A DNA stretch of 39,249 bases, taken from the NCBI GenBank assembly GCA_001929475.1, contig LXFE01002348.1, positions 1 to 39,249 on the forward strand, in the 5' to 3' direction. Each line of letters opens with the position of its first letter. Positions within the stretch are counted from its first letter, which is position 1. The DNA is from Neolecta irregularis DAH-3 (lineage: Eukaryota). Of the stretch, positions 100 through 38,835 are shown piece by piece. Below the pieces are notes generated by a model. It saw only the letters and a list, made by a program, of their open reading frames with translations, was not told the origin of the DNA and did no database searches. The translations under genes and the position numbers were made by a program.

Positions 100-3000
100 A
101 TGCCGCCCGCCCTGCCCGCGCTCGCCTCTCTGGCCATCGCCTCCCCGCCCGATGTCCTCGATCCGCGCCCCTACCAGCGCGAACTCTTTGAGCGCGCGCG
201 GCTGCACAACACCCTCGCCGTCATGGACACCGGCTCCGGCAAGACCCTGATCGCCTGCATGCTGCTCAAACACGCCCTCGTCCGCAAACCCCCGGCCGCT
301 GCCCGCCGCCTGGCTGTCTTCCTCGTCGACAAAGTCCCGCTCGCCCTCCAGCAGGGCACCGTCGTCCCCGCATCGCCTGCTAACTGCTGCAGGCTTCGTC
401 TTGAAGCACAACGTCACCCACAACATCGAGGTGTGCTACGGGGCAAAGGTCGACGCGTGGTCCCTCGACCAGTGGAGGCACGTCTTCGACACAAGAGACC
501 TGCTCGTCATGACCGCAGACATCCTCAAAAACCTCCTGCACTCCGCTTATGCAAAAATAGACCAGGTCCTCCCGCCCTTCCCATCCCCCCGCCCTTAGCC
601 CTAGATAAATCTCCTCATCTTCGACGAGTGCCACCACGCAAAAAAGCAGCACGCCTATGCCGTGATCATGACCCAGTTCTACTTTGAAACCCCCCTCGAC
701 AAGCGGCCCCGCATCTTTGGAATGACCGCCTCTCCCTTTGATGACCTTCAGCAGTCTATACATGGAAACTCGGCAGAGTACTCTTGCTCCTCTTGCCGCA
801 CTCACGCCAAAGAAACCTCGAAAAGATCCTCGACGCACACATCTGCACAGTCACAAACATGGCGTCCCTAAAAGGTACCCTTTTGCGCCAACGGTCATTA
901 CATGACAGACTTTCTACACAAGCCCGTTGAAATCGAGAGAGACTATCAAACATATCACGCCCCAGACTTTTCTCCGCTCCATAAAACACTCGACGAGATG
1001 TGCAAAACATTTCCCAAATCCTTCAAAAAGGCCCAGAATGCCGCCAGAGCAGTCCACGAAGAGCTAGGCCCTTGGTGTGCTCATCACGCCTGGGGAATCC
1101 TATTGAACGAACTCAAAGATTGGCCTTATCAAGCTCGCATAAGAGGCTTGGTCAATGATGACGTCACCATTCACACTTCCCAAAACATAGCAAGAGAACT
1201 GGCCCAAAGAGCCCTCGAGTTCTACAATGACTACAATTTCGCAGAATTGTCGGTTGCAGATGTCAGCCCAAAAGTCAACGTCCTCCTAGACATCCTCAGA
1301 GAAGTATACATTGTCAGAGATGTCACTGCAATACTATTCGTCGACCGAAGAGCCACTGCATTTGCCTTGAACGGTCTTGTTAAAGACCTGGGCCAACGCC
1401 AGCTTACTGGCCCTTTTCACAACATCAAATCTGAAATTCTTGTAGGCCATGGAACGAGCTCAGCCCCCGGCGACGTTCAAATGGATTTGAAAAACCAGCA
1501 AAGAGTCCTCTGTCGATTTCGTAACCGGTCCTTGAATCTCTTGATCGCTACAAGGTATCCATCCACCACGCGCTCAACTATAATGATAGTGTTGGAGAAG
1601 AAGGCCTCGATATAATAAGCTGCAGCGTAGTAATTAGGTTTGATGCTTTGCCAAGCAAGCTTACACCCCCAGATTCGATTTATGCGCAACCCCAATTCAG
1701 TATATCCAGTCCCGCGGGCGAGCACGCCAGCACGACTCTAAAGTATATTTACTTTCAAACCGTCAAGTAACACAAAGTTTTATTTAATCAAAGAAGCCGG
1801 AAATGCTTCACATGTTCGTCTGATTAACCAGGTAAAAGTCGCTGAAACGACGCTTCGAGAGTACTGTGCCCGTCTTCCATCAGAACGGAAAATCATGCTC
1901 GATGCTGACGACGACGGGGATCCTCCATCCCAGACAAACTTTGTCTACATTGAAAACTCTACAGGTGCTCGTTTGACGGAATTTAACGCTCTCGGATTAC
2001 TAAATGTGTATTGTCAATCTCTTCCGCTGGACAAATATACTCCAACAACACCCACATTTACCCTCGAAGGAGATTTTATGTACTCTGTAACTCTACCAAA
2101 AGTATCTCCATTAAAAGAAATAATTCGGGGGTCCCCTCAGAATTCCCGGAAAGCTGCAAAAAGAGTCGCTGGTTTTCTGGCTTGTGTCCGACTTCGCGAA
2201 ATAGGAGAGTTAGACGAATATTTACGACCCCCTTGTATTCGCAAATCAATCATCGATCTAGAACTACAAGAACTAGAAAAAGAAGTTCAATGGACGGCGA
2301 AACTGGAATACCCTGTTTATCGACCTGCATGTTGGTTACTCGAAAACATCAAAGATACAAGCGCTTTCTACATCAATATTATTTCCTTGGAAAAACCACT
2401 ACAGCAAGTCGAATTCCGAAATCTTTGCTTTCTATCTAGAACTGAATTGTCAGAGATCCCTGATATCGATCTTTTTGACGGCGAGAAAACTGGAGTTGCT
2501 AGAATTAGTACTTCCTCTCGACGTATTCTTCTCGATTCAACACAATCTTTACGTTGTCGCGATTTTACGTTAGGCATGTTTGCTACTGTACTCGGCCGTC
2601 AATTCGTCATTAAAGATAAAAGCGGTAGTTTACCATTCTTCATCGTTCCACTTTGCAAACAACATCCATGCGATATAGATTGGGAGCTTTTAGAAAAGTG
2701 TCTTTGTACCTCTGATTCCCCATTGCCCGAATCTCTCGATGGAGACATGCAAGATGTCATGCAAGATGTCATGGTAAGTGTAATGGGCCAATATCGCGGA
2801 AAATACACCATCTCGCGAATTCGCTATGATCTAGGTCCATCGTCAATTCCTCCTCCAGGTTCAACCGAAGAAGGATACAAAAGTATCGCAGAATATTACG
2901 AAAAACATGCTCAAAATTGTCAAATTGAAGATATTTGTCAACCGCTGTTGGAAGCGCGCAAAGTCTCTCGCGTTTTAAATTATTTACATCCTAATGGCCG

Positions 3001-4867
3001 ACCACGGGATCGGCCAAGTATCTTTTTGGGTTGTGTTTTTCCTAACGGGTAGAAAATGATCCAGGAAAACCGTTTCATTTGATCCCCGAGATGTGTTTAG
3101 CTAGTCATATACCCGCATCGTTAATACGAGCATGGCTTCTAATACCAGCTGTACAAATTCACCCATATATTTCTTACAAGATAGATATACATGCGCCTTG
3201 AAGCATATCTGTTAACTCGACAGCTCGGTGTAAAACTCAAATCAAACGTTTCGTTAAATTTGCTTTTAACCTCGCTACAATCGCCCTCGGCCAACATGTC
3301 GACTAATTACGAACGGTATGTGTTCTCGCGATATACATGTTTACAATTTAGCCTAGAGTTTATCGGGGATACATTTCTTAAATTTGTCGCTACGCTTTTG
3401 GTGTATACTAAACATCCGGAGAAACACGAAGGGTTTCTACACCTCTTTCGGAAGAAAATCATTTGTAACCAGAGTTTATATTATAAGGCTATCGACCTTG
3501 GTCTTCCTGGCTATGTACCATAACATTCAAAGAAAACATACCTAATGGAACAGGTTTGCAGTTTTCCGTTTTCTCGGGGTATAATAAGTCTACCAGGCTG
3601 TTTTATTACCGGACATTCGGTCGTGGAAACACAACGACTAGGCAAAAAGACTGTTGCAGATGTGATGGAAGCATTATTAGGGGCTGCATATCTTCATGGC
3701 CAATTAGACGAAGCCCTCAAAATGTCTAAAGAACTCGGAATCGTCGATACACAAATCTCTCACATCCATGAATTCTTTTCAGAGATTACACCTGTCCCTC
3801 AACATTCCATCAATTCCCATCAAGAATGGCCTCAACGAGAACAAATTGAACAAACAATCGGGTACAAGTTTCGGGATGGAAATCTTTTACGGCAAGCGTT
3901 AACTCATGCCTCTGTGCAAAATTCAACATCAGATTGTTATCAACGACTTGAATTCGCGGGGGATGCTGTACTCGATTTATTAGCAGTCGATCATATCTGC
4001 AGAAAGTTCCCCAGCGAAACACCTGCTAATTTGACTCTTTTAAAGGTATACTTTTTGAAAAATGAAAAAGTTGAAATCATTAGAATGTTTTAGTGTCCAA
4101 CAAGACACTTTGTGCTATATGCATTGACTCTGGGTTTCAGCTTTACATGGAATTCATGAGTTCTACAATTATCTCTGATATCAACATATACGTTGAATCA
4201 TTGGAATCTTGCCGTGATGAATCAAATCTGCCCGAGTATTGGATGGACCTGCATTCGCCAAAGGTATCTTCATACTACGTCTTCTCTGACATCTAAAGTT
4301 CCTTTCGGATGTTGTCGAATCTCTTATTGGTGCCATTTTCTTTGATTCAGGCTGTCGAATGGATGCTCCCTTGTTATTTTTTCAGAAATTTCATTTACCC
4401 TTTTGTGATCCTGATACAATACCTACGTTTCACGGCAATCCAATGGTACCGCTTATCAGTTTTATTTTTAATTCTTACGGTGACAGACAGAGTTGATGCA
4501 AATCCTTCAAAAAAGGTGTGAAAATTACCATATGCAAGCTTTTCCTTTTCTGCAAATTCTTACAATCAGAGAAAAGATACATGTCCAAGATGAGAATGCG
4601 CTGGATCAATTTCCCCCGGATAATATCCAGAATGCGCTGGGTGAATTTCCCCGGGATTATATCCAGGTTTCACTTGTTGTGCACGATACCATTATTCACT
4701 CTGAAAAGAGCATTTCTTTGAGGGAAGGGAAGAATCTTCTTGCAACTCATGTACTGGAGCAATTTGCAGCAAACGACCAATATTGCTTTCAATATTGCGA
4801 TTGCAAGAGAATCCAAACTGATAAATCACATAGTGACGACGACGATGATTTTGTTAACAATATCTAG
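100..4867 (+). CDS. dcr1: Dicer (DExH helicase, DUF283, PAZ-like, two RNase III domains, C-terminal dsRBD with Zn motif); 14-15 introns
   Basis: [32 protein letters not shown] and YIQSRGRAR helicase motifs; DUF283 [13 protein letters not shown]-like AEYY..QPLL..LIPEMC; RNase III NYERLEFIGD and [22 protein letters not shown] and [10 protein letters not shown]; terminal YCDC. Introns 356-392, 566-604, 778-812, 875-908, 1555-1589, 1638-1672, 1743-1777, 3018-3052, 3151-3184, 3316-3351, 3515-3553, 4046-4083, 4264-4298, 4446-4486, and possibly 4534-4569. Confidence 0.95.
4595..4666 (+). repeat. 36-bp tandem duplication inside the Dicer C-terminal domain
   Basis: aatgcgctggatcaatttcccccggataatatccag / aatgcgctgggtgaatttccccgggattatatccag, encoding [12 protein letters not shown] / [12 protein letters not shown]. 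Confidence 0.85.
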
Positions 4868-4913
4868 AGGAATCCCGCTATTTACTGCATTTATGGAACC
4901 AGAACAGTCATAT

Positions 4914-6917
4914 TTACATTTGCTCTGATTGTTTGTACTCGATAAAAGCTTGTAAATTTTGAGAAATTTCATTGGCTTTGGATCGTTGTGCGCGATTGTG
5001 CTTTGGTATGCAGTTTACCTATTTGATATTAGCGCAGTCCTTTCAGTGTGGCCCCACCATTGTATAAAGTTTGGGCAAGGTCTCTTGTAAATGCCTCAAG
5101 AACCCGCATTGGACAAAAACAGGTGTATCGTAATCAAATGCCGAGTCGGCATAAATATCAAACAAGGCATCCAAAGATTCAATGACGGCGTCGACCGGAC
5201 TTCTCGGGAGTCCTTGGATGACCGTCATGAGGAATATGCCAATTTCCTACTAATCAGATATTGAAACCGATAAGGAGTATACTTGATTGATCTCAATTTG
5301 GCCCTGTCTGCAAGCTAGCTTTCCCAACGTGCCGATACATTTCGTTTGAAGATTTTCAGATGATGTCTCGCGGAAGATTTTAATGATTTTTTCGAGGTCA
5401 GGTTTGGAAATGTCAATATCGAATGATGTCCTTGTGATAATCCATGCTAATCCCAAGACAAGCTCAAGTTCAGCTTCCCCTGTGCAGTCACCCGTTATAT
5501 AATTGAGGCAAATGTTCCAGATGTCCAACGCTATATCCTTCCAACCGAATCGTGATTCTTGTTTCTCTGGAATACGAGATTCGATAGTCCATCCAATGTT
5601 GTTTAAAAATTCTAATGTTCTTATCGCCATATCTGCTTTTCCTTGGTCAATCTTTTCTTCCAGTTCTTTTTGTAGGTCTTGCAGAAGACGCACAGATATG
5701 GGAACGGCAACTGAAATTATCTCCATGAGAAAGCTTTGCGAAACAACTGAAAAAGTTTCCACTCCCATTTCTTCATCCGAAGCATTGGAACATGCATCAT
5801 CTTCATCGCATACCAAAGTCTCTAAAATATCAAAAGAGGTTGATATCAAGTCAAAAGACTCCAAACCAACAAGGCGAGGAAAGTCCTGCCGAGATCGCTT
5901 GTCATCTTGGTCTTTCAGGATAGCAAGGACCTTTTGAAAAGGTTTCGAATGATCTTCCAGAGAGGTGAGATTACACAACACGCCTTTGATTAACTGCAGT
6001 CGAACGATGAAAATACCACATAAATTGATTCGGGCTAATGCTGGACAATCCTTTGCATCGATAGAACATGCAAGTACGTTCAAAAGGGACTCGTCATTCG
6101 AAATATCAGCACGTATTTGTGAATTCAAGTCTGATAATGCATATAATGATTTAGCTATAATTCAGAGATGTAAACAACTCAAAGTTGGTACCAGCGACTA
6201 TTTGAGAGGTTATTGGTGAGCGGTATTTATTATCAACGAGTCCAGATATCAGAGCCAATACTGATGCATTCGACTGAACAATGACCTGCATTGCTTTATC
6301 CGCGAATTCGCTGTTGAAGAAGTGAGATTATTATAAGCGAGTTGTTACGGACCTTAAAGCCCATACAAGACACAGTAAATTTTCACTCAAGGGCCATAGG
6401 ACTTTCAGCATTATTGCATCAACGCCCGGGCTTTCTGATTGTGCACGAACAGTCGTGCTGCACTTCCATTAGTCTAATATTTCGACGCTGCATGCTTTGT
6501 TGATAAGGGACATCGCGGGAGTCAAGATATCATTCTCGTAAAGTTCCACACAGACGTCTGGGGTAGTTGCAAAGTTTCGCAAAGAACCGCTTGCCTCAAG
6601 AATAACTTGTTGAGACGAATCCGTTAATCTCTGAATCAAGGTTTTGAGGACGCCATTTGCTATTAGTAAACGCTTTAATTCTGTGTCTTCAGCGGCAATG
6701 TTGGAAACAGCCACAGCAGACCACGCACGGTCATTCTCGTTAGGACTGTCCAACTGAGATGAAGTAAGCTCACTCACAAGTGATCACAAACTTTTGAAAT
6801 TATCGGCAAGATACCAGCTTGAGATATTTGAGAGTCAAGCTTGCCATCCACATCGAGTCTCTTTGTCGGAGCTGGTCTGTTCTGCCTATTATTTCTGCGA
6901 GACGCCGTTTTACCCAT
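4914..6917 (-). CDS. syo1: ARM/HEAT-repeat protein, Syo1/HEATR3 family (symportin for Rpl5/Rpl11); about 7 introns
   Basis: Basic N-terminus MGKTASRRNNR, then ILPIISK|LDSPNENDRAWSAVAVSNI, LIQRLTDS, EASGSLRN, LVWALSE; C-terminal LDALFDIYAD and NLQAFIEYKQSE. Introns include 6754-6791, 6463-6495 (GC-AG) and 5019-5057. Confidence 0.8.
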
Positions 6918-6982
6918 TCTCAATGAATATTTCTTGAAATGATTTGTTTAATTGTGTTGTGCACGTGCGCTTTCCTACCGTC
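6918..6982. promoter_or_regulatory. 65-bp bidirectional promoter region between syo1 and MLH1, containing a GCACGTGC E-box palindrome (6961-6968)
   Basis: Divergent ATGs at 6917 (-) and 6983 (+). The palindrome is read directly; its function is inferred. Confidence 0.5.
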
Positions 6983-9399
6983 ATGATGGATGCTCCACCA
7001 GAGACAGATGCCAATCTTCCACGTCCAATTAAAGCTTTAGACGCTACGGTGGTCAATAGGATAGCGGCAGGAGAGGTAGGCGGCCGCAAATTATCACCGT
7101 TGATTGACCTTGTACGATCATCCAACGTCCCGCAAATGCATTGAAGGAGCTTATTGAAAACTCCATAGACGCTCGGTCCACAAGCATAGATATACTAGTC
7201 AAGGATGGAGGACTCAAGCTGCTGCAAATCACTGACAATGGTCATGGCGTTCGGGTACGAGGCCCCATAGTGTGTTGCTTACAAGTTTCAGAAAGACGAC
7301 ATGGCTATTCTGTGTGAAAGATTCACCACTTCCAAATTGCAAACCTTTGAAGATCTCTCCTCAATTGCTACATACGGATTCCGGGGTGAAGCTCTTGCTA
7401 GTATTAGCCATGTTGCACATATGACCGTCACTACCCGGACTGCAAGTTCTGACTGTGCTTGGAGGTTAGCATTACAAAGAGTTTGCTAATGCTTAGAGCT
7501 TGCTATTCAGATGGAAAACTCGTAGCAGCAAAGAATGGAATCTCTGCAGAGCCAAAACCCACGGCCGGACGACAAGGAACCCAGATCACCGCGGAGGATT
7601 TATTTTACAATGTCCCTACTCGTCGTAAGGCATTCAAAAATACAAACGAGGAGTATTCTCGGATAGTAGATGTTGTCAGTAGGTATGCTGTACATTGCGA
7701 GGGCGTAAGCTTTACTTGCAAAAAGGCATATTTCTACCGTTGATGATACTTATTCCACAGCATGGCGATAATAATTACAGCGTTTCGACAATGGCAAAAG
7801 CATCGAGCCTTGACAACATTCGTCAGATATATGGTCATGCTGTCGCATCGGAGACTGTTGCATTCAGTTGCTCAAATACAAAGTTTGGGTTTCAGGCAAA
7901 GGGTTTGATTACAAACGCAAATTACCATGCGAAGAGAATGATTATGTTATTATTCATCAATCGTAAGAAGCTCGTTCTGGAACTCAAATTAAGGGAAAGA
8001 CCGTTTAGTCGAATCGTCAAGCTTAAAGAAAAACATCGAAGCGACCTATTCAACTTTCCTTCCCAAGGGCAGCCATCCTTTTATTAATATATCAATTGAA
8101 ATTGAACCGCACCGGGTCGATGTAAATGTTCACCCAACGAAACGTGAAGTTCATTTTCTAAATCAAGAAGAAATCATTGATGATATATGTGCTGCTCTGC
8201 AAAGAAAGCTTGCATCCACAGATACTTCCCGCTCCTTTAAAACTCAAGTATATGACCACTACCTTTGCAACCTAACTTTCAAAGACTTTATTACCTGGCG
8301 TTAAACCTGTCGAACTTCCAGCTACAGTAGAAGATCTGAGCAAAGGTAACACATCAAGAAGCAGCACAATTCTCATGCATCTAGTTCGAAAGCCATATGA
8401 AAAACATATGGTTAGGACAGATAGCCGTGACAAAACTCTGGATTCTCACTTTACACCTCTCAAAGAAGTAAAGTCGAATATTTCACAAGTTTCCTCTCCC
8501 ATCTGTAAAACCACAGATCGAAGGCGAGTTCATATACGTCTTTCCAGCATCAAAGAACTTCGCTCACAAGTTCGGGATACTATGCACAGCGCTTTAACTG
8601 AGGTTTTCGCAAGTCATACTTTTGTTGGAATTGTGGATGAGACACGAAGACTAGCGGCAATTCAACATGGAACGAAGCTTTATCTCGTTGATTACGGTGC
8701 AATCAGTTTTGATTTATTCTACCAAATTGGGCTGACTGACTTTGGAAACTTTGGAGTCATTCTCTTAAATCCACCTTTGGAGATTTCTGCTCTCTTGGAG
8801 CTTGCAGCTTCTTCCCAAGATGGGGAAGATGCAGTCATGTCTGATATTAATTCGCCCGAGCAAACACAAATAAACGCAAGATGAAGTCCGACTGTTCATA
8901 CTGATTGGTCAGCCAGTCACGGAGATTCTCGTGTCCCGCAAGGAGATGCTGAACGAATATTTCTCTATTGAAATTTCCGAAGACGGATTTTTGTTGACAA
9001 TACCGCTGCTATTAAAGAACTACTCGCCTGGACTAGGAAAATTACCTCGTTTCTTACATAACCTCGGAAGCAAAGTATCGCCATTTCTTATCTCTGCATA
9101 ACTGTAGGTGAATTGGTTTGACGAGAAGGAATGCTTTAAAGACCTCATAGGAGAACTCTCTCTGTTCTATTCACCAGAACCTTTGCCCCAGCCCGTGCCT
9201 GAAGCTATGGAAGGACGAGCCACTGATCTTCGACATTCGATCGAACATGCTCTGTTTCCTGCTTTCAAGAAGCGACTGGTTGCGACAAAGCGATCACAAC
9301 AAGAAAGAAGAGTTGTTGAAGTTGCAGATCTTCCAGATCTTTACAAGTTAGTTTTTTGTCAGTTTTTCGTTAACGCGCAGAGTATTTGAACGATGTTAG
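6983..9399 (+). CDS. MLH1: DNA mismatch repair protein MutL homologue MLH1; 10 introns
   Basis: [62 protein letters not shown], terminal LYKVFERC*. Introns 7076-7116 (GT-CG), 7255-7291, 7465-7496, 7726-7760 (GC), 7963-7999, 8248-8284, 8346-8384, 8876-8912 (GC), 9075-9107, 9347-9380. Confidence 0.97.
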
Positions 9400-9663: not shown

Positions 9664-10981
9664 ATGTCAACCTCCAACCAACTTCACTCAAAAAGTAACA
9701 TCCTCCACACAACAGAATCTGGCACGACGCTTATCGACGTGCCTCTGAAGCGAGATGTGCTTCACAGTCTCAAATATAATGTGCCGATCTCATCTCCACC
9801 AAAATACCCATATGTCCTAGCAGAGCCCAAGAAATTGGGGTCAACCTTGGCACAAACGGAGGAATTGCACAAACTTCACACCAGATGGAAAGACGTACTC
9901 GAAAATGCATTGCTGGACATGAAGAATGCTATTGGTGAGAGTGGACGGTGGTGTTGTGAGAGACCGGAAACAGGAGAAGAAAGTTTGGAGCTCATAGACT
10001 TTAATTTCGGAGATTGGGCTTGGAATTTGGAAAGTATGAGATCAATGGGATGTTTTCAGAATACATCTGTGCTCGAATTATCAAGTATTCAGTCCTTTTT
10101 GATCATGTTAATCTTTTCTATTCCAGGTGATTTCACAGAAAATGTCTTTGATATCGATTCAATATATAGCAGAGTTGTAGCCAACAACTCCTCAACTGGA
10201 ACGACCTTATCGATTTCTATACCGGGGAGAAATCAACAGTATTCGCGATACTATATACCAGCGCATTCAGCTTTTCTCCTCGCGCGGTTCCAGCCTACTA
10301 TCGGCCATATGAATATTTATGCATCATCTGTCAATGGCTTTGATTTACTTATCCTCGACCCGCCATGGCCGAATAAATCTGCAAGTCGTGGTAGCAAGTA
10401 TCGCACAATCGATGTTTTTGATCTATATCAACTGAGAATCGGCCACTGGTTGCGAGAAGGAGGACTTGTGGCAGTATGGTGCACCACAAAGACAAAATTC
10501 AATAATTTTACAAAAGAGAAGTTATTTCCGGCATGGGGGGTGGATTTGATTGCGGAATGGGTGTGGCTAAAGGCAAGTTACGTATTGGCAAATCGCTGAT
10601 ATCAAGGTGACTGACAAGGGAGAGCCAGTATTTAATTTAGACTCGTTAAATCGGAAACCATACGAACCAATAATAATCGGTCGAAAGCGACTTGATCTTC
10701 CGAGAAGAAATCGAAAACGGAATAAGGCAGAATCGAAAGATATTGATCACGTGTCTTTTCTGCCCGACAGAAAAGTGTTGATCGGAGTTCCAGAGAAGCA
10801 TAGCGTAAAGCCTAACCTTATTGGTAAAGGTGCGCATAATAATAAATACTAATATTCAGAGCTTTTGGGTGACTTTATCTCTCCAAATGCAGTAATTGGC
10901 GAAGTGTTTGCGCGTAATTTAACAAGTGGGTGCTTTTCATGGGGTGACCAAGTTCTCCAGCATCAGTCTGTGCGTGAATGA
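9664..10981 (+). CDS. MT-A70 family N6-adenine methyltransferase, METTL4-like; 3 introns
   Basis: FDLLILDPPWPNKS catalytic motif, EWVWLK|VTDKGEPVF, RKPYE, HSVKP, EVFARNL, SWGDQVL. Introns 10085-10126, 10573-10606 (GC-AG), 10824-10859. Confidence 0.85.
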
Positions 10982-11098
10982 AATTATCTCTGGTTCCCTC
11001 AGAAAGCAAGTTTCCCATTCATCCTAGTACTGTAGGATAACTGCCCTGTAACCAACCTGCTTGTTGTGTATGTTTATAACAATATAATTCAATACAAT

Positions 11099-11899
11099 CT
11101 AAATCTTGCTTTCTCGATTTAAATCTAGGGCAGATTTGGGATTTGTGGACATCAGCTCCAGGGGATGGCCAGACCCCGTGGCTTTCGGACCCTCGACATC
11201 ACCTTGCAAATATATAGTATCTCGATACACAAAGTCGAACCGTTCATAGATGTTTCTATTTTGAGGGTGGGAGGATTCAAGATAACAAGGAACACCGGCA
11301 GCATCAGCCTGATCTATTAGATCTTGATAACATCAAGGAGACTACCTGGCGCGAAGCGCATTCGATGAGCTTTCTAGCGTAGCCTTTACCTCTTGCGGAA
11401 GGGAGAGTACCAAGATATACGAGATACCAGGAATTCTGATCGTAGTCTCCAAGGATGAGTTTCCTAAGGTTAATATCGCTGCTAGTCGGAGATATACTTT
11501 GTGGCAAAAAGCAGTGGGAAGAACTCGTCGAACAAGCGAATCCGGCCTTTGCGCGATAGTTTGTAGTATAGTCTCCAATAGCCGCTCATAAATAGGGTAG
11601 TCAGACTGTCTGTGCTCTTGCCGGGGGGCATCCTGCACTTGTAAGAAACGAGTCATGCTGGGATGGTACCATAGGGACACGCCGGCAAAGTCATCGATCT
11701 GCCAGACCTGGCCGTGGAGGAGATGTGCGTAGACGGTGTACTCCATGAAGTCGGCATGGAGTTTCCGGAAGGTTTCTTCGGAGGTGGAGATGTGTGGGTG
11801 GCCAAAGAGGTAGCGGGAGGCAGGATCATCGTTGAAGGCAGCGGCAAGAGTAGCAGCGGCTCTACTGCAGTCGCAAAAGGACACACGCTGGGGCTGCAT
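11099..11899 (-). CDS. GNAT-family N-acetyltransferase; 3 introns
   Basis: AAATLAAAFNDDP, GVSLW|MPPG, WYLVYLGTLPSARGKGYARKL (acetyl-CoA motif A), PCYLESS, NRNIYERFDF. Confidence 0.85.
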
Positions 11900-12140: not shown

Positions 12141-12903
12141 ATGACCTTTTCCCGCGCTTCAAGAAAAGTCATTGCAATTGGCCGCAGTATCTCTGTATTT
12201 ATATACATCAACTGAATATTAAGACTATGTTGAACACGTCAAAGAACTCCACAATGCCGTTCCTGCCACTCCTTTCTTTTTCCTGAAACCGCCAAGCTCC
12301 ATCATCCCCCCAAAATCCACTCTTCGCATCCCACAGGGCGTCCATGCACACCATGAAGTCGAATTGGCACTTATCATCGGCCACAGAGCAACAGATATCC
12401 CCAATGACATGGACGCCGCCATGAGCGTCATTGCGGGCTATGCGGTTGCAATCGACGTCACTGCTAGAAACGTCCAGGACGACGCTAAAAAGAAAGGATT
12501 GCCTTGGACCATCGCAAAGGGCTTTGATACATTTCTACCAATGAGGTTTACATAACTCTATACATGACACTCATAGTCATAAAGCTCCTTCATCCCGAAA
12601 AGTTCAATACCAGATCCACACAATGCAGTCTTGAAGTTGACTGTCAACCACGAGTCCCGGCAGAACGACTCTACCAACCTCATGATTTTTAAAATCCCTA
12701 AACTACTGAGCTATATTTCTGGGATCATGTCTCTTGAACCAGATGATGTTGTATTGACAGGAACACCAAAAGGTGTCGGGAGAATTGTCCATGGAGATGT
12801 AATGAGAGCCAGTATCCATGTGGATGGAGACAATATCAAACAAGGCAACATAGAAATAATGGTGCAGGATAGAGTTGGAGGATACCACTATGTTAGCAAA
12901 TGA
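12141..12903 (+). CDS. Fumarylacetoacetate hydrolase family protein (FAHD1/Fmp41-like acylpyruvase or oxaloacetate decarboxylase); 2 introns
   Basis: KVIAIGR|NYVEH, FFLKPPSS, HHEVELA, DVTAR, PWTIAKGFDTF, DVVLTGTPKGVG. Introns 12187-12223 and 12546-12584. Confidence 0.9.
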
Positions 12904-12972
12904 ATAAAAGCTTTTAAGTACAAAGCGAATGTATTTATCTATACGATCTTCTTTTTCCTATCTAACTTTGGG

Positions 12973-15321: not shown

Positions 15322-16478
<1,157 letters not shown>

Positions 16479-22281: not shown

Positions 22282-22362
22282 TCCACCCACCACCACTAAC
22301 CACCAACCACCAACTGTCAACCACCAACCACCAGCTGTCAATCACCAACCACCCACACCTCC
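22282..22362. repeat. CCA-rich low-complexity repeat with a duplicated unit of about 21 nt (aaccaccaaccacca(a/g)ctgtc), upstream of mor2
   Basis: Read directly; followed by a short (GCT)n run near 22423-22436. Confidence 0.65.
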
Positions 22363-22479
22363 TCCTGCATCCGCTCTCCGCGATCGACCCGGCGTCCTTC
22401 GGGGCTTCGAACGGGTGTGTTGCTGCTGCTGCTGTTGTCAATTACTGCTTCCACCAAAGACCAAAGACCATACCCGCCC

Positions 22480-28400: not shown

Positions 28401-29731
28401 TTTTAGCGAATTTGCCCCGTTTTCTTGATTGCATTGAAAACTCTCAAATTACTGACGATGTTGTTATCGCTGCTCAACAATTGTCTTCGACTGCAGAACG
28501 TCAGGAGCTTTACACATTAGCCAAGATCCTAGATTCTTATGGAAAATCCAGATTCCGAACCAAAGAGGATTTTCTTCGGCAAATTGTTCATACCATTCGA
28601 GAGTTGTATTTTCCGCAGCATGAAACACAGGCGCTCATCTTCTTGCTGGGTCTACTATCCAACAAGTTGACATGGATGAGACTAAAGACTCTCGAACTTC
28701 TGAAAGCTGTCTTGCCTCATATCGACATGCGAAAGCCTGATTTTGTTGGAGTTGGAGCGGACCTCATTGCCCCTCTACTTCGACTACTTCAAACTGATCA
28801 TGCCCACAAGGCTCTCAAGGTTCTTGATGAAGCCATCTCGATATCTGGAGGTCCAATGGACAGACACATTCTTCGCATGAGTTTGGGTAATAGCACAATC
28901 AGAAAAGAATACGAACGTACCGCCACTCTCTTCGGGATCCCAGATGAAACTGGCTGGGCCATCCCTATTCCTGCAGTAACTGCAACAACAACTCGAAACA
29001 ATGTCCATGCTGTCTTTTATACTTGTGTTAGTACTACAAGTGCAGGCTCGCCCGGTTCCGATGTCCAATTTCATGCCGATGACTACATTTATTCACCCAT
29101 TCGGGATGATAGAACTGCTACAATGTTATCAGATGATCGGACTGAAGTACATATGGGTGATATGGTATCCACGCTCCATAATCTCGACCAGTGGTTTGCA
29201 GAAGACGTTCCATCTCATGCACCCACGCCTTCTCTTGCTGGTACAGAATATAGCGTTGAACATTCAGAGAGTGCGCCCCATGTCTATGATACTCGGGTAG
29301 CTGCTATTGTGTCACGCAGTCTCATGAGAACACCATCAACGACATCGTTTAAAACAAATTTGGCAGATTCCTTCGGCGCTGCTTACGGAAATGTTCGCCC
29401 ATCAATGCCGCATCCACATGCATACCGGTCATCCCCAAACACAGATTCTCCAGGTTCACCGGCAAGTCTTGACAGCAGAGGGATAAAAGAAGAAGACTCC
29501 TTTGAAAGCGGAGACGATTACGATAATGACGAAGATACGGTCGTATTCAACAGTAACAGTTTTGAAAATTCCTTTGGGCTTGAAAAGTTGATTCGTACGG
29601 CCAAGCGCAGTTCATCAAAGATGCAGCTATCAGCCAAGCTCAATGGGAAGAAATCTGCTGTGCCGCGAGAAACTCGTGATCGAAACAGTCGAGGCCGTTC
29701 GCTATCAAATGGATTCGGTATTGCCTCGTGA
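22480..29731 (+). CDS. mor2: Cell morphogenesis scaffold Mor2/Tao3 (Furry family, MOR/RAM network); 5 introns
   Basis: KTPAEYALHILFTQFV, GVDPTFDKIL, KPKPVIDSIMFWRKSK, ERRSLVSIYILCRAL, WATSCPVRHLACRSFQ, DMLARLSNTI, TLFGIPDETGW. Introns 23349-23384, 23509-23542, 23681-23713, 23931-23970, 26397-26434. Start codon is uncertain. Confidence 0.93.
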
Positions 29732-30202
29732 TATCCTGAATGATGATCATGAACTATGAGCTACGAGTTTCTCCTAGCATCTTTTGCATTTTTACAATGT
29801 TTGTTTCGCCTATTTTGGATTCATCTAACTGGTTTGCAGATTGTGTTCCGTGTCTTGCTATTCTCTACGCCTGTACAATTATATTGGAGGGGCGTTGATT
29901 TTTCCGGATTTTGAGTATCTTTCTTTTTCGTTTTTCTCTTATGCGAAGGTGTTTGGATATCGTTATTTTCACGAGGTATGATGAGATGGGTGGATCTTGT
30001 ATATAATGAGATAGATTACAGGTTACGGAGCTCTTATGATTGTAATATTATACCTATAGATTTGACGATCAAGCTATAGCATGTAGAGTCACGCCGGACT
30101 GCTCTTCGATCTACTTCCAAAGGTCGATGAGCTTGACGTAGGAATTAATGTTATGAAAATAAAACGTCAACCTCACCGAAAATCATCGGCCGTGCTAACT
30201 AA

Positions 30203-31499
30203 ATGAACTCTCTCTCCCATCTTCCAGCTGGAGTCCATGACCCATATCGACCGTCTCTATTTGAATTAGTAGCAGAAAAACAACTACGCGATCTTCTGCA
30301 GCCAGCATTACGTTATGTGTTCGCCGTAAGTTGATCTTGAGAACACACTTATTCAAAATTACCCAGTTCTATGCCGAAAGATATCCACGCTATCTCATAC
30401 GTATATTTAATTTGCACGATGAGTTATATGCACTTCTCATGGTGCTGATTGAAAGATATTACTTGAGGGAATGGGGTTCACCTACTCGAAATCTTTTGCA
30501 AATTAACAGAACAAGGAGGATCATTTACGGAAAACTTTTATGGTCTGAAGAGAACGCGGGCACCAGCTCTTGCTGATGTGCATCGTACTTCAGCATCAGT
30601 GTCAGGTCTATTGAACAAGGCCACTCGGCTACGGAGCAAAGATATCCGGAGGTCGCTTTTTGTTATGGTTTACTCAAGGAAGACTCCTAAGTTGAACCAT
30701 AGATTGTAATACCTTACATCAAGGCTAAATTAGACAATCTCTACGATGTTCGAGCTGGAGGGGCAGCATCTCGACTCTTAGGACACGCATTTCAACAGGA
30801 CGAAGAATTACACGAAAATGTAAAGAGAATTCCGGAAGCCTTATTAACCCAGAGCAGACTTCACGGCGTGATAGGTTTTATTTTTACCTTGCTCGGATAT
30901 TTCGTCGATTTTATCCATTTATCAATGCAGCATACAGTCTTTCCACCTTGGCCTTTTACTTTACATATCTATTCGACAAATCGGACTGTCACTCCCCCTG
31001 GCTTGCTCTAATTAGGGTCAGGGTCAGAAGACTCGGGGCGGATGACTACGTAAGCAGTCATGAACACGAGTCATTCTGATGAAATTAGCGTTTACAAGCA
31101 GATAAATCACAAAACTCGAGGAGAAATGGCGTATCAGCCTCATCGAGGATTTTCAACAGTCTTCGTCTTATGCTACCAATATCGATCTTCCTTCTTAAAT
31201 TTCTCGAATGGTGGCACGAGAGTGACTTTGCCCGACAGTGGACCGCAAAGTCCACTTTATCCATCGAATTGCCTCCTCCAGAACTGATTCCTCCGCATGA
31301 AGATGGCATTTCACTACCTACTGATTCAAGTCTATGTCCCCTTTGTGAAATGAGCATTCGGAACCCTACAGTTTTGTCCACGGGTTATGTTTTTTGTTAT
31401 CCTTGTATTCATAAATGGGTTGAGGAGCATGATTATTGTCCTGTAACTCGAAGCAAAATTCTCAGTGGCGTAGCTGAACTCAGGAGGATAATGGCTTAA
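30203..31499 (+). CDS. PEX12: Peroxin PEX12 (RING-type peroxisomal import factor); 5 introns
   Basis: PSLFELVA..LRDLLQPALRY, GGSFTENFYGLKR, IFLLKFLEWW, degenerate RING CPLC..NPTVLSTGYVFCYPCI..CPVT, LRRIM. Confidence 0.92.
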
Positions 31500-31602
31500 A
31501 AAGCGTAGATATAAAAATCATGTAAAGTTATCGCCGTCATGTCATTCTCACGTGATCCTGACTTTCCTATCTTCCAAAACTGAACTCTGGTTCATTTCGG
31601 AT

Positions 31603-32086
31603 ATGGAGCAACAACCAAATTCCTCTGATTGTTTCCTGTTTCACTCTTCTGTGTTTCCAAATGAGGCTTCAGAGGCACGAGATCATTGCGGTACACATTC
31701 CAACTATTCAAAATTTGACTCTAGCAAATGAACGAAACTTTCTGTCATGTCTCCGGCTTGCAATAATCCTAGCTCTTGTAGGCGTAGTAATTGAAGGCCG
31801 AATTCGACTGATATCGGATGATGGTCCGTCTTCTCCTAGGCCGGAATATCCCTTGCCCCTTGGTATTGCGGAATATTAAATTGACCAAGCTGACACCTAA
31901 GGCATTGTTTTGCTAATTTTGAGTATTTTTTGCTTGATATTCGGAGTGTTTAATTACTACCACACGCTGAAGAAATACGAACAGCATCGGTCTTATGTTC
32001 AGTTGGGATGGCAATCACAGCTTTTAGGATTATCGATTGGGATATGTACATTTGGAATGACGGTTTTATTCACCTATTATAGTTGA
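31603..32086 (+). CDS. Small DUF202 (YidH/Vtc1-like) membrane protein; 2 introns
   Basis: NEASEARDHC|ANERNFLSCLR signature followed by three hydrophobic segments. Introns 31691-31724 and 31863-31901. Confidence 0.8.
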
Positions 32087-32219: not shown

Positions 32220-35200
32220 TTACTGCTCCATATAATCCGGATTTTTCCTCAAAATCACAAGACCTTCAAGAACGGCCGACAATGAAAGATATTCCTCCGA
32301 TGCCAGTTCTGCACGATCGTTATGACCCAAGAGTACAGGGGTGGTGTGAGTTTGGAAGCCGGTTATTGTCTTGGGTCGGCCAGCCTGTCCGACAACGTCA
32401 ACGGCCTGTGGGGTAAGTCCTCAAAGTAAAGAAAAAGTAGCTACCTGTCCTACTCTAGCAGTAACCGGCAACGGTTCAAGGTTCTCATCTAATGTAATCA
32501 AGAACCGGGGATGCATGGCCATTGACATGTAATATAGTAACCAAGGGGCTTGTTCCAAAATAACTGCTTCATCAGCAGATTTCCAAATGACAAAAGATTA
32601 CAGAATTTTGAATCCATGAGCGATACTAATACCGATAATAATCCCGAGACCGCTACTTTTGACATAATTTGCCGATCCCCGTAAAATGGGTTGATACTCA
32701 TAGTACCCTTACCCATATGCACTAGACCCTACTCTGAGTCAACTGGGGGTTCTATAAAGCAATTTACCTGGGCGATTCGAACCATGAACAGTGCATTTGC
32801 TTCTCGAGAATAATAACTCGCAAGTTGTCTCAACAATTGAGCTAATCGGGCATTGTTTGTCCCAGCACCAATCATTCCCATTGCAAATATTGCATTAATA
32901 GCAACCTCAATATCACTGTCATGAGATAGTCGACTTAGAGTATCGATAATTTTGATCTGGGGGTTGCTGGCACTTATCAATCCCAAAGCGAGAGGGACTG
33001 CTTTGCGAATGACAGGTTCACCATAATGCATCTAATAGTAAGCTCACAAACCCTATTGATGTCGAACCAAATGACTAAATTGACGTAAAGCCATTTCAGC
33101 ACCAACCTCTTCGCCCATAGCAATCATTGCAATTCCTAGGACAGCAAACCCTTGGAATAAATCATCTTTGTGGTCATCTTCGCCATCAATATGCGCATTG
33201 CAGAGATGCAATAGAGACTGAATTTTGAGCACGTTTCCTGTACCAGCGTAGCTGGATATATCTACAAGGACTTCTGACTGTCTAGCAATAGGATGTTCGA
33301 CAGCTTTGAGGGTTTCGATGGTAACGTCTGCTGCGTCTTGTTTGCCCAAGAATAAAAGGGCCAAGCCGAGAGACATGAAGCGGCCGTATTTGTCCTTCAA
33401 GGCCTTTTCTTCACGTTCCATGAGAGTCTGGAGAATCGTAGAGCTGATTTCATCATTACATGACCCTACAAAAACTTGGCCCAGAGCCAGCGCTGCGAAC
33501 CCGGATAATTGCATAGTGTAAGCCGAATCACCAACGATTGGAAGCAAAAGATCCAGAACTTCTTGTCTCTGTGAACCGGCATATGCGAATCCCAACCTAC
33601 ACATTCAGAGGCAGCCATAAAGAAAGCCTACCCAGCGATAGCCCCTGTCTTGACATGCATATTTGGTGCTTCGAGCCACTCACCAAGAATCGCGAGACCA
33701 GGATCATTCTCGTCACGCACACCCATCAAAGAAATGCCCATTGCGAGTGCAGAACCGCCTTTAATGTGATCCTCGGAAGAATATTGATATTTCTCGGCGG
33801 CTTGTAGACCCTCATCTGGATTCCAAAGATGTAGAAGACCAATTGAACCAGCAGCACTCATTTGATCAGCATTTTTATTTTTGAAAATCCAAGGGCTCTT
33901 TTCATCTTCCACGAGGATGAGTTTATCTTTTCCGAACCCGGCATTTACGAATGCGTTTACGAATGTTGCAGCAAGGTTTTGCTTAGCCGAGTCAATATTT
34001 GCGGCCCCGAGGCTTGGTCCTAAAAGGAATCAGTCGTCGGATTAATTTCACAACACTGACGGGTATTTTCCAAATGTGACTTGTAGATGTCCTCGGGCAA
34101 TTTTGGCTCCTGGATGTTGAGTTCGTCGGCGAGTTTGTGAAAGTATTTGTGTAGCTTGGTATTACGAAGACAATCAGAGAGTTCTTCATCTTCGGATTCT
34201 ATCCAAATTTGTTGTCGTGACAGCATAAATGCTAGCTGGCGCTTCAGAGTGCTAAAATGAATGTGAGCCATGTCTCGAAATGTGCAAACATACCGATCTG
34301 TTGTTGATTCGAAATCCGCATGGATGAGATCCAGATCATCTAATCTAATAGCTAGTGACAAGGCTTGTGCTATTCTGCCATGCCGTCGATAGATCTCGTG
34401 CGCTGTGCGAAGGAATTGGACATCATCGGGAGGTGCCAGTAAACTAACGCAGCTGGTTGTCAGTTCAGCCTTGTCTATATCATGATAGTACCCGACCATG
34501 TACAAGCACACTCGTTCAAAGGTATTTTTGTCGACGAATTCTACTATTCGGTCGATAGATTCTAGTTCGAGTAGCAAATCGACAGCATCATGTTCAGCAT
34601 TATGTCCTAGGAAAAAAGGAACGAGGATAAGGACTAGAGACATTAGGTCATCGATGCCCTCTTCTTTTTCCATCCGTGCCGTATGCTCTTGCGCGATCTC
34701 AGCAGCCAAATGCCTGATGTTGGTGATCAAGCAAAAGTAAATACATACCGCACGTATTCATGGCCCCACAAGGTTGGATCTTCATTACCTCCCAATAGCC
34801 TATATTTTAGAGACTGTCGTTTTCCATTTTCAGTGAAAGTCATGCCCAAGACCGATAAAACATCTGCAAGAGCATGCTAGAGGGTCAATAGACTTTCCAT
34901 CTCTGGGTCTCAGCTCTACCTTGTTTGCAGAATCTGGCCATGATTCATACAGACCAATCATGTCTGCATAGTGTGGTCTTAGGAATTTGAGAGGTTTTGG
35001 GACGGCCGTCATTGAGCTCGTGGAAGTTCGGATGTATGTTTTGAGCTGCTCAAGAGCAGGCTTATAGAGGGCGGAATTCGATTCCTTGGAGTAAATGCGG
35101 AATTCTAGCGAGTGCAGTACTTTTAGTCTCTCTACAAGCATCTCGAGTTCGTTTTTGAGCTGTTGGTCTTCCTCTGACTGTGGGATAAGCCCGGTTTGGG

Positions 35201-35333
35201 GACTGGAACCCACCAATTCCTCCTGGTCCTCGTTCTTAGGCTGCATGCCGGGTTTCTGGGCGGGTGGACCTGAGTCTGCATCTGCAGGTGTGGGTTTGGA
35301 GGTCTTTGTGGGTGCCTGGGCGCTTGAAGGCAT
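32220..35333 (-). CDS. RPN1: 26S proteasome regulatory subunit Rpn1 (PSMD2/Mts4); 12 introns
   Basis: [106 protein letters not shown]. Confidence 0.97.
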
Positions 35334-35536
35334 GTCGGCGGTCTGTTTGAAGCGCGGATTCTTCTCTGAGCTGGGCCGCGTCACTTGCAGCCGCCCCCGG
35401 TGATGGTGGAGCAGATGCATACATGCAGACTGCTTGCTGCAGCGGCGCTTGGAGGTGTATGTGCTTGTGCTGTATATCTCACTACGCATATACCCGAGAA
35501 TGCCGCCAGTGGCCACGCCGCTGCCCAAACATACCC

Positions 35537-36346
35537 ATGGCCACTCCCCGTCCAGGCACCACACCAGGCATTTACTCCACACCCAGCCACCGTACACTGA
35601 CTCTGCCCAGACACAGAAGCCAAGCTGCAGTCGTATGTCAACTACAGCGGCCATTTTAGCTTCATCCGCTACCTGCACCTCGCAGATTTTATCACAATCC
35701 TCAATGGTGCATATATGCGCCGTATATGTGTTGCTTATCTTGGCGCAGGGTTTTGCGGAATCATGTCCGTCTTCTCGTCGATGCGCTACTGTCTTGGTCT
35801 ACCTACAGACTTTTCAGACCTCACTCTTGCCATGGTCCTGATCCCCATGGGCCTCTTTTTCGACTTTATGGACGGCAAGGTCGCCAGGTGGAGGAACAGG
35901 AGCTCGTTTCTCGGACAGGAACTGGATTCGCTCGCAGATCTGGTGTTACGGTCGTATAGGCTACACTCTAACCTCGTTAGATTTCATTCGGCGTTGCCCC
36001 AGCCGCTTGCGCTTTTGCTATTGGATTTCGTACCTTTGCTGACACAATCGTGCTATCCTCTTTTGTCCTTTGCGGCTTGTCTCGGCTAGCAAGGTTCAAT
36101 GTCACCGTCTCTTCCCTGCCAAAAGATGTATCTGGAAAATCCAAATATTTCGAAGGGACGCCTATCCCCACAACTCTGGGCCTTGTAATGACAATGGCGT
36201 ATTGGTTGAAGCAGAATCGTGTCCTTGATGCCCTACCATGGGGCGTAAAAGGAAGCGGCATGTTTGAAATCCATCCCATTGTATGTATATTTATATTGCA
36301 TGGATCTGCAATGTTGAGCAAAACTCTCAGAATACCCAAGTTGTAG
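35537..36346 (+). CDS. CHO1: CDP-diacylglycerol-serine O-phosphatidyltransferase (phosphatidylserine synthase); 3 introns
   Basis: [71 protein letters not shown]. First intron 35568-35610 is GC-AG. Start codon is inferred. Confidence 0.9.
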
Positions 36347-36971: not shown

Positions 36972-38835
36972 ATGAAGGCTACGGTAGCATCACGTTTATC
37001 CAGTACATCATCTAGCAGTTCGTCAGACCAGAATGTAGCGACTGTCAACTCTAGAGACAAATTGCGGCCAGGACCCGAGAAAATGAGCAGTTACGACGTT
37101 GTTTTAAAACCGAACAAAGACTCCCTAAAACGACAAATACTCAACAGTTTCAAACGCAAAGATCAAGATATAGAGGATGATAATCATAGCTTTTCCCCGT
37201 TACAGATGGTTTTGATGCCACTGGGAACTTGTATCGGAACCGGTCTGTTCATTGGGACAGCGATTTCACTACGAGAAGGTGGCCCTGGTGGTCTATTAGT
37301 GTCGAATTTATTCATGGCTCTACTGATGGTTTTCGTTATTCCGAGTCTTGGAGAGATGTCTGCTACAATTCCTGTTACTGGTTCTTTCACAGCCTATTCA
37401 GCAATGTTTATCCATCCTTCATGGGGATTTGCTATGGGTTGGATGTAATGACTTCCTAATTAAATGCTGGTTTTGACGAGGCTAGTTACGCTTTAAATTG
37501 GCTAACTGTATTCCCACTGGAGTTGACGGCTACGAGCATGGCAATCAATTACTGGCAATCAAACCCAATTGCTCCTGGATATGTACTTGCTCTCCTTTTC
37601 GTTGTAATCATCATTGTCAATCTTTTCGGACCTCAAGGATATGCTACATCAGAATCAACAGCCTCAATAGTCAAGGTTATTGGTGTAATGCTCTTCGTAA
37701 TCGTTGGTGAGTATTCCTTGCATTCGTTACTAAATATCACTAGGCATCATGCAGAATGTTGGTTATCTTCCTCGAGTTAATGGCGAGTATATCGGGGGAC
37801 AATACTGGCGAATACCTGGTCCTTTAGCGCACGGCTTCAAAGGTGTATGCTCCACTCTCGTACACGCTGCTTTTGCGTTCTCGGGAACTGAGATGGTTGG
37901 GATGTATGCTGCACAAGCGAAGAACCCAGCGAAATCAATACCGTCCTCAACCAAACAAGTCTTCTGGCGGATCGGACTGTACGTGAACACATAATATCTC
38001 GTTGCTGACTCCTAGATTCTACATCGCTGCAGTCATCATTATTGGCCTGGATATTCCATATAATGACCCCGGTTTGTATGATGAACATTCATCTTCACCA
38101 TTTGTGTTGGCGATGATGAAGACGAAATTGGGCGCCCTTCCATTCATCGAAAATCTCGTTATTGTTCTATCCATTCTATCCGTCGCAAATTGTAGCGTCT
38201 TTGCGGCTAGCACAACTATCGTAGGTCTTTCGAGAAAAAATCTTGCGCCCAGCCTCTTCGGGTATGTCGATCGGCAAGGGAGGCCTTTGCCATCACTTTT
38301 ACTGAGTCTTATTTTTGGTACTTTGGCATTCATCAAACTTTCAAGCGCCGGTACCCAGCTTTTTGATTGGCTTTTGTCTCTGTCAGGTTTTGGGGCGATT
38401 CTTCAATGGGCCAGTATTCTGTTTTCGCACATTCGTATTCGGAAAGCTTTGAGGAGAGAATTCCCTTTGGATTCACTTCCCTATCGAGCACTTTGTGGAG
38501 TCTGGGGTTCTTGGGCTGGCTTATTTATGCTCGGTCTCGCAATTCTGGCGCAATTTTACACTGCTTTCTTCCCAATCCAAGGATCGTTCACAATCGAAGT
38601 ATTTTTTCAAAAGATTCTTGCCCTGATCGTTATCCTTTTGTTATTCTTCTCACATGTTATTTTTGCAAACAGATCTTCATTTGTTGACGGAAAGCGATGG
38701 AGGCTTATACCAACCAGCTCAATCAATATGAAGGAGTTTGTTGGAAACAAGGTTGATTGCATCAAGGGAGACAAGAACGTTTCGACAGAGATCGTTCGAG
38801 GAAAAGCTATGCGTATTGTTGACTTCTTGTGTTGA
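36972..38835 (+). CDS. Amino-acid permease (APC superfamily, yeast amino acid transporter type); 3 introns
   Basis: GTCIGTGLF, GGPGG, LGEM, GFAMGW, FAFSGTEMVG, KQVFWRI, SPFV, DRQGRP, FDWLLSLSG. Introns 37445-37485, 37707-37743, 37979-38015. TATAAA at 36920-36925. Confidence 0.93.

Follow-up and report, generated by a model that had tools for sequence, protein, structure and literature searches.

The 39,249-nucleotide (nt) contig LXFE01002348.1 of Neolecta irregularis DAH-3 (assembly GCA_001929475.1, positions 1 to 39,249 of the forward strand; hereafter the window) raises the question of whether genes can be interrupted as densely, and by introns as short, as an earlier reading of the DNA made from its letters alone had proposed: about 90 introns in 16 genes, all but one of them 32-44 nt long and with almost no donor consensus. 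If such introns exist, it has also to be asked how they are recognised. We found that the window is full of genuine, very short introns with weak donors, and the earlier observation is thereby confirmed. The introns of Neolecta are an extreme form of ordinary splicing and are often missed by public gene models.

Very short introns in nine genes

Homologous proteins were aligned to the DNA with a spliced aligner that used BLOSUM62 and had no donor matrix; every intron of 18-600 nt, whether GT..AG or GC..AG, incurred one and the same penalty. Because neither length nor donor was modelled, the narrow length distribution and the donor pattern described below are not products of the aligner. In this way 35 introns were recovered in the genes for methylmalonate-semialdehyde dehydrogenase (ALDH6), Dicer and RPN1, with 14-16 homologues per gene. 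The spliced coding sequences of all three are open and each closes at a single stop. The lengths that the sequence-only reading had given for 14 Dicer introns were matched one for one by the 14-homologue alignment.

Transcript evidence was provided by contigs of run X2 placed on bases 1-20000 of the window. They contain 56 splice joints in this interval; the 15 rows listed cover 16 introns, namely nine of ALDH6, two of the FAH-domain gene, three of the RIO2 kinase gene and two of the gene for a protein with an RRM domain. All nine ALDH6 introns are thus supported by joints as well as by 14 of 14 homologues (68-74% identical), and the public protein model P0008 aligns to the gene at 100%. Two of these introns, of 39 and 37 nt, enclose a micro-exon of only 10 nt (14276-14285, minus strand), which appears in the X2 contig as 10 letters between the two sides and is present in the alignments of all 14 homologues. 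In Dicer, X2 record 9 lacks 105 nt between 1552 and 1778, equal to three introns of 35 nt. Record 10 lacks 116 nt between 15526 and 16022 in RIO2, and in the RRM protein gene it omits 195 nt of the interval 17030-17870, which equals 42+37+39+36+41; the boundaries of the three RRM introns other than the two with listed joints were set from predictions and sequence inspection. It should be noted that run X2 is recorded as 'DNA?', yet its contigs are spliced and transcript-like. One X2 contig of 5591 nt crosses four genes on both strands, and the introns of each are gone.

Five further junctions are crossed by continuous Pfam profile coordinates. The Pex2_Pex12 profile runs over positions 20-48 and then 50-74 across the PEX12 intron at 30476, and over 109-169 and then 168-213 across that at 31050; in the amino-acid permease gene the AA_permease profile passes from 80 to 82, from 156 to 170 (with 14 unaligned residues) and from 237 to 239 over the three junctions. 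One junction in the CDP-alcohol phosphatidyltransferase gene is supported by unbroken reading: a single frame gives ...ELDSLADL before and ISFGVAPA... after it, which we take to be the conserved motif of this family. Taken together, homologous proteins, spliced transcript contigs and Pfam/PDB continuity support 51 introns in nine genes (Table 1).

Fifty of the 51 supported introns are 34-43 nt long (median 37, standard deviation 2.30) and one is 180 nt, in line with the range proposed earlier for all but one of them. Of the GT..AG pairs that span 20-300 nt anywhere in the window, just 3.7% have a length of 34-43 nt. With a minimum of 34 nt and a typical length not below 30 nt, these introns lie outside the ultra-short class (<30 nt). 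Lengths divisible by three are not depleted (20/51). The 180-nt intron of ALDH6 is skipped in an X2 contig and demanded by 14 of 14 homologues; it is a single case. The three genes resolved in full hold 35 introns in 8550 nt of coding sequence, a density of approximately 4.1 per kb.

To extend the count to the whole window, a predictor combining donor, branch and acceptor matrices with a length term and codon usage was trained on verified introns. When each gene was left out in turn, it recovered 33 of the 35 introns with three false calls, and it found all seven of seven introns later seen in RNA; both introns of the FAH-domain gene were called in advance by a predictor untrained on them. Over the whole window it makes 110 calls, about 20 of which we judged false or misplaced. 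Since 56 X2 joints fall in the first half alone, the total is about 90-100 introns in the 16 genes that translations, Pfam and homologues define, close to the number first put forward. Ab-initio gene finders with a flat or near-flat length prior were tried and rejected: they fused neighbouring genes or linked exons by way of long introns that do not exist, and the best of them recovered 15 of 22 known introns.

Could the short gaps be assembly frameshifts or artefacts of annotation by hand? The case most favourable to this is in MLH1, where a 41-nt segment (7076-7116) with ends GT..CG apparently has to be removed; it is not counted among the 51. Bases 7117-7254, in another frame, align to residues 25-70 of human MLH1 (PDB 4p7a_A, E 9.6e-17), and there is no AG from the stop codon at 7105-7107 to base 7117. 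Lacking a legal acceptor, this segment could be a single-nucleotide error or mutation. Its letters are identical in the assembly of run X1. An acceptor other than AG, a mutation of 1 nt in the individual sequenced or a fault in the reads themselves could each account for it. Elsewhere, transcript contigs skip exactly the proposed segments, homologues demand their removal, and the segments have GT-AG ends and a branch motif in common. The independent X1 assembly is identical to the window in its long pieces, letter for letter and free of gaps. For the 51 supported introns the artefact reading is refuted, and in general we give it practically no credence.

Splice signals and spacing

The ends are GT-AG in 49 of the 51 supported introns and GC-AG in two. 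Among the 49 GT donors, A at +3 (36 donors) and G at -1 (28) are far above composition (p about 1e-10 and 1e-7, respectively, for 47 donors). Farther downstream the signal is weak. Position +4 carries A in 11, C in 16, G in 4 and T in 18 donors, a bias towards pyrimidines (34/49; p = 0.008, 47 donors); T stands at +6 in 20. G at +5 was found in 18 donors, and this G is much stronger in Schizosaccharomyces pombe. The information content is 0.63 bit at +3 and 0.19 bit at +4 to +6 summed, i.e., about 0.8 bit for +3 to +6. On average, donors match CAG/GTAAGT at 5.0 of 9 positions, compared with about 3.75 expected given GT alone. The view that donors vary freely beyond their first two bases thus goes too far: the signal is weak at +4 to +6, but A at +3 and G at -1 are clearly preferred.

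The motif GTRNGT, the usual donor in other fungi, occurs in 11 of the 49 donors, and with +5 G in 18 of them these introns fall outside the class in which most donors have this form. Canonical GTAAGT is indeed rare (2/49), and GTATGT was found in four. The eight donors quoted by the sequence-only reading are mostly exceptions to the G/GTA preference, and seven of them are borne out: those at 566, 875 and 1638 by homologue votes, those at 15527 and 15736 by X2 joints, that at 30476 by Pfam continuity and that at 35943 by continuity of the reading. The eighth, at 5057, comes from prediction. No compensation between -1 G and +5 G was detected (Fisher p 0.20, 41 donors). No donor fits RTATCCTT, the consensus of U12-type introns; the sole donor starting with GTATCC, at 1555, runs on with AT and not TT. 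Rfam and tRNA scans of the window gave no hits, and no snRNA gene lies in it.

The branch motif is well preserved. In 40 of the 51 introns there is a strict yTnAy whose A lies 6-11 nt before the 3' end, compared with 248 of 2485 size-matched GT..AG decoys (10%; p 1e-30). With relaxed motifs the distance from the branch A, as predicted from sequence, to the 3' end peaks at 8 nt, and the distance from donor to branch is therefore about 28 nt. Acceptor position -3 is never G (48 introns), and relative to coding sequence the introns contain somewhat less G and more T.

Both the motifs and their spacing proved informative in silico. Without the donor matrix the predictor made 148 calls and merged genes, compared with 110 calls with it; donors therefore carry information. 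In a decoy test, signal matrices were trained leaving one gene out, and the cut-off was set to retain 30 of 34 true introns. At this cut-off 2167 GT..AG decoys of 20-400 nt also pass, and just 58 of them are 34-43 nt long, so that some 97% of the decoys accepted on signal are eliminated by the length window. Spacing thus contributes information beyond the motifs. A scan of 12.7 kb of spliced messenger RNA (mRNA) found no intron-like pair of 34-43 nt at or above the 25th percentile of true scores, compared with 4.4 +/- 2.7 pairs in synonymous shuffles (none of 30 shuffles was as low) and five on the antisense strand. This hints that exons avoid intron-like patterns.

Recognition of the introns and its rival explanations

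How, then, are such introns recognised? We consider it likely that they are ordinary U2-dependent introns which have shrunk to the smallest size that the spliceosome accepts and which are spliced by intron definition. GT-AG or rare GC-AG ends, yUnAy near the 3' end and precise, frame-restoring removal, all features of the U2-type class, were found. Each intron would probably be recognised as one unit, made of a weak 5' site (G/GUA with little after it), a yUnAy branch some 28 nt further on and, about 8 nt past the branch A, an AG. The three signals lie so close to each other that their joint occurrence at this spacing would be specific enough, while each alone is weak. The narrow length peak would then reflect a lower size limit combined with pressure to shrink, and not a measuring device, and the small nuclear RNAs (snRNAs) would be canonical. 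In many lineages minimal introns show a peak of this shape, close against a lower limit. As we read the evidence, it does not appear to need altered U1/U6 or a reduced spliceosome.

Several points weigh against this explanation. The pyrimidine preference at +4, where A stands in 11 of 49 donors, is a trait linked to intron-poor species (PMC10581693), and an intron-rich species such as Neolecta is atypical in having it. The two GC-AG introns, one with the poor consensus GCACCG, and the apparent GT..CG removal in MLH1 are likewise unexpected, and together with the +4 bias they leave a modest chance that 5'-site recognition has been re-tuned. Without spacing, the modelled signals are far from sufficient, as the number of passing decoys next to 30 true introns indicates. 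Since 58 decoys still pass within 34-43 nt, either the model misses information or spacing is read more actively than supposed. The scores behind the mRNA avoidance came from matrices trained on the same true introns, and the sample comprises 51 introns of nine genes on a single contig.

The sequence-only reading had proposed that splice sites are chosen mainly by a ruler between donor, branch and acceptor, recognition being relaxed through modified U1/U6 or a reduced spliceosome. The 10-nt range that holds 50 of 51 lengths favours such a model, as do the approximately 0.2 bit at +4 to +6, the poor match to CAG/GTAAGT, the power of the length window against decoys, the GC-AG and GT..CG ends and the +4 pyrimidines. 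What stands of it is that spacing is informative; because the 180-nt ALDH6 intron is spliced, there is no strict ruler. Moreover, A at +3, G at -1 and the branch motif are still well represented, and prediction suffers when the donor matrix is removed. Relatives and lineages with ultra-short introns keep canonical snRNAs (PMC8624252, PMC13644364), and weak 5' sites usually go with many introns and with complex spliceosomes rather than reduced ones (PMC8476143, PMC10581693). We therefore regard the ruler model, taken as a whole, as improbable. A related possibility, which we hold to be rather unlikely, is an unusually compact intron-definition complex that reads the donor-branch distance of ~28 nt as a primary signal, with the U1/U6 contacts at +4 to +6 relaxed or re-tuned, for instance through an altered modification of the U6 ACAGA box or an altered 5' end of U1. 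Such a complex would account for the GUAY donors, for +5 G having been lost, for the poor-consensus GC-AG introns and possibly for a non-AG acceptor; were it true, intron density would rival or exceed that of Pneumocystis.

It is also conceivable, though on balance unlikely, that the machinery is canonical except for one shift in how U6/U1 read positions +4 to +6, for instance a loss or change of the METTL16-dependent N6-methyladenosine (m6A) in the U6 ACAGA box, which would lead to GUAY donors. The composition of +4 (C or T in 34 of 49 donors, A in 11, G in 4) and the low +5 G point in this direction, and METTL16 is the strongest correlate of +4 identity in Saccharomycotina (PMC10581693). In the same source, a preference for U at +4 is a feature of intron-poor species tied to the lack of METTL16 (Parker et al., 2023). 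However, the sample is small and comes from one contig, and C at +4 is left unexplained. Ordinary U2-dependent splicing of shrunken introns remains our preferred explanation.

That ascomycete donors should as a rule resemble GTRNGT is a premise that fails for this subphylum: in S. pombe, splice sites are described as highly degenerate and similar to those of mammals (PMC4787815, PMC8624252). S. pombe and other Taphrinomycotina share with Neolecta, which belongs to the same subphylum, GT-AG introns, degenerate 5' sites and a yUrAy/yUnAy branch (PMC8624252, PMC4787815); on both sides the branch lies very near the AG, a polypyrimidine tract is not evident and genes carry several introns each. In S. 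pombe the branch motif is YURAY, and the efficiency of intron-definition splicing depends on intron length (PMC8624252). The introns of Neolecta are shorter and far more uniform, whereas those of S. pombe average <100 nt and more than 75 of them exceed 400 nt. From the branch A to the 3' end it is about 8 nt in Neolecta, compared with a mean of 13 nt in S. pombe.

Ciliates, dicyemids and myxozoans resemble Neolecta in having a sharp length peak at the lower limit, reduced motifs and a branch A near the AG (PMC13644364, PMC5014332), and splicing in those lineages is apparently conventional and U2-dependent; animals with 22-nt introns retain canonical U2 and U2AF (PMC13644364). Their introns, however, are 15-30 nt long and belong to protists or parasites with fast-evolving genomes, whereas Neolecta, with its minimum of 34 nt, is a free-living multicellular ascomycete. 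According to Irimia, Penny and Roy (2007), as cited in PMC8476143, 5' sites are less conserved in intron-rich than in intron-poor species. Two classes of 5' site have also been distinguished (PMC10581693). Within this co-evolution of intron number and 5'-site strength (PMC8476143, PMC10581693), Neolecta fits by being intron-rich with a weak 5' consensus, but its +4 pyrimidine does not fit.

The kind of intron is known (minimal, narrow in size, weak at the 5' site and spliced by intron definition), and Neolecta is an extreme and apparently undescribed member of it. The genome of Neolecta has 14.5 Mb, 44% GC and 5,546 genes, and its RNA has been sequenced (PMC5309816); the main text of that paper contains neither 'intron' nor 'splic'. 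In the searched texts of papers on Neolecta and introns or splicing we found no statement of intron length or donor strength for this species, although supplementary tables (PMC5309816, PMC8476143) may hold figures. The distribution described here would rank among the tightest and shortest of intron lengths in non-microsporidian fungi, and it occurs in an early-diverging ascomycete (Taphrinomycotina) that is used in discussing the origin of complex multicellularity. Through a culturable relative or a heterologous system, such introns could serve to probe the shortest donor-to-branch distance that a fungal spliceosome tolerates.

Public gene models and the genes of the window

Public models hold 27 of the 35 introns verified in ALDH6, Dicer and RPN1 and add one false intron. 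The Dicer model P0121 matches at 100% and contains 12 of the introns, plus a 49-nt intron at 628-676 that is supported by no homologue: it reads through two introns and then removes 49 nt encoding the DECH box. In the RPN1 model P0272, six of 12 introns are present, three in-frame introns are kept as coding and the end comes early, at 32732. The MLH1 model P0271 (100% match) stops at 8881, and its false intron 7112-7146 deletes a conserved coding segment. Across 1211 orthologues, 4202 introns have been counted in Neolecta versus 4842-5289 in Pneumocystis (PMC7940399). Since public models misplace or miss introns, counts such as 4202 are likely too low; published comparisons may thus undercount Neolecta introns, by extrapolation from three genes.

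At least six supported introns are in frame, free of stops and a multiple of three in length (3316-3351, 14160-14195, 34252-34293, 34453-34491, 35085-35120 and 35178-35213). Were they retained, nonsense-mediated decay would not act on them; gene predictors take them for coding.

Table 1. Genes of the window with their supported and predicted introns. Fractions are homologue votes for the intron; lengths and donors are given in brackets where available.
Gene	Position	Strand	Supported introns	Introns from predictor or public model	Remarks
Dicer	100..4867	+	14 introns: 356-392 (GC-AG, 37 nt, GCACCG, 7/14); 566-604 (13/14); 778-812 (14/14); 875-908 (10/14); 1555-1589 (14/14); 1638-1672 (13/14); 1743-1777 (10/14); 3018-3052 (4/14; 8 votes for acceptor 3064); 3151-3184 (14/14); 3316-3351 (12/14); 3515-3553 (11/14); 4046-4083 (14/14); 4264-4298 (13/14); 4446-4486 (9/14)		14 homologues, 31-36% identical
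SYO1-like	4918..6917	-		5019-5057 (GTGGGG); 5247-5282; 6155-6191; 6311-6352; 6458-6511; 6754-6791; 5082-5120 (in frame, uncertain)	Ends uncertain; Pfam TPR_SYO1 on large exon
MLH1	6983..9389	+		Public P0271: 7255-7291; 7465-7496; 7705-7760 (56 nt); 7963-7999; 8248-8284; 8346-8384	3' third without settled structure
MT-A70 family methyltransferase	9664..11027	+		10582-10618; 10824-10859; 10930-10966	Pfam MT-A70, E 4e-16
GNAT acetyltransferase	11099..11899	-		11309-11345; 11464-11497; 11633-11669	Pfam Acetyltransf_1, one exon
FAH-domain gene	12141..12903	+	12187-12223 (37 nt); 12546-12584 (39 nt)	12098-12134	Two X2 joints
ALDH6	12973..15085	-	Nine introns: 14868-14902 (35 nt); 14652-14831 (180 nt); 14286-14322 (37 nt); 14237-14275 (39 nt); 14160-14195 (36 nt); 13725-13761 (37 nt); 13592-13627 (36 nt); 13410-13449 (40 nt); 13251-13288 (38 nt)		
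RIO2 kinase	15322..16478	+	15527-15566 (40 nt, GTCTAC); 15736-15774 (39 nt, GTGCAA); 15985-16021 (37 nt)		Three X2 joints
RRM protein	16808..18598	-	17031-17072 (42 nt); 17269-17305 (37 nt); 17514-17552 (39 nt); 17643-17678 (36 nt); 17830-17870 (41 nt, GC-AG, GCATGC)		Two listed X2 joints
NADPH-cytochrome P450 reductase	19542..21810	-		19554-19590; 19720-19763; 20995-21029; 21551-21594	Exons match Pfam Flavodoxin_1, FAD_binding_1, NAD_binding_1
Tao3/Furry-like	22172..29759	+		23349-23384; 23509-23542; 23681-23713; 23931-23970; 26397-26434; 29587-29620; calls at 22184, 22663, 28165, 29454 weak or in frame, uncertain	
PEX12	30203..31469	+	30476-30515 (40 nt, GTTCAC); 31050-31088 (39 nt)	30326-30366; 30668-30702; 30820-30857	
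DUF202 protein	31560..32086	+		31691-31724; 31863-31901; 31990-32027; 32046-32082	Start uncertain; weak Pfam matches, two exons
RPN1	32220..35333	-	12 introns of 35-43 nt: 35178-35213 (15/16); 35085-35120 (16/16); 34877-34919 (15/16); 34714-34748 (16/16); 34453-34491 (16/16); 34252-34293 (16/16); 34020-34060 (41 nt, 7/16) or 34013-34056 (44 nt, 9/16), ambiguous; 33597-33631 (16/16); 33032-33067 (16/16); 32729-32767 (16/16); 32564-32601 (15/16); 32406-32444 (16/16)		Sixteen homologues, 56-65% identity
CDP-alcohol phosphatidyltransferase	35415..36346	+	35943-35980 (38 nt, GTGTTA)	35592-35630	
Amino-acid permease	36972..38835	+	37445-37485 (41 nt); 37707-37743 (37 nt); 37979-38015 (37 nt)		

A number of predictor calls were rejected. 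The segments 32957-32998, 35880-35918, 37243-37278 and 38351-38386 are in frame and were shown to be coding: removal of 35880-35918 would delete in-frame coding sequence, and the AA_permease profile passes straight through the last two. Calls spanning gene ends (8839-9075, 9347-9612, 9661-9695, 12888-12921, 12958-12996, 14913-15139 and 31470-31503) and a predicted antisense 'gene' at 25988-26553 were set aside on our own judgement.

No set of boundaries for the first Dicer intron is fully satisfactory, although all 14 homologues place it within 356-406. Besides the boundaries given in Table 1, six of 14 homologues select 370-406 (GC-AG) and one selects 361-406 (GT-AG, 46 nt); the last alternative passes over the first AG following a perfect CTAAC. 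Between 1082 and 2941 the X2 contig differs from the window at 14 positions, all in Dicer exons and eight of them synonymous, and the other listed X2 pieces of the first 20 kb show no differences. The Dicer differences may derive from a second allele, another individual or a close paralogue.

The MT-A70 gene carries a DPPW motif. Among the animal proteins of the MT-A70 family, METTL4 methylates U2 snRNA.

GC content is much higher in the first ~900 nt of the window, which hold the 5' part of Dicer, than in the remainder; the introns of this region are rich in C and have the oddest donors. Bases 1-95 consist of degenerate G-rich repeats of 8-10 nt, with units such as GGGTCAAC and GGGTAAAC. They look telomere- or subtelomere-like, though the G-rich strand points into the contig, and contigs of both runs extend beyond base 32 with similar sequence.

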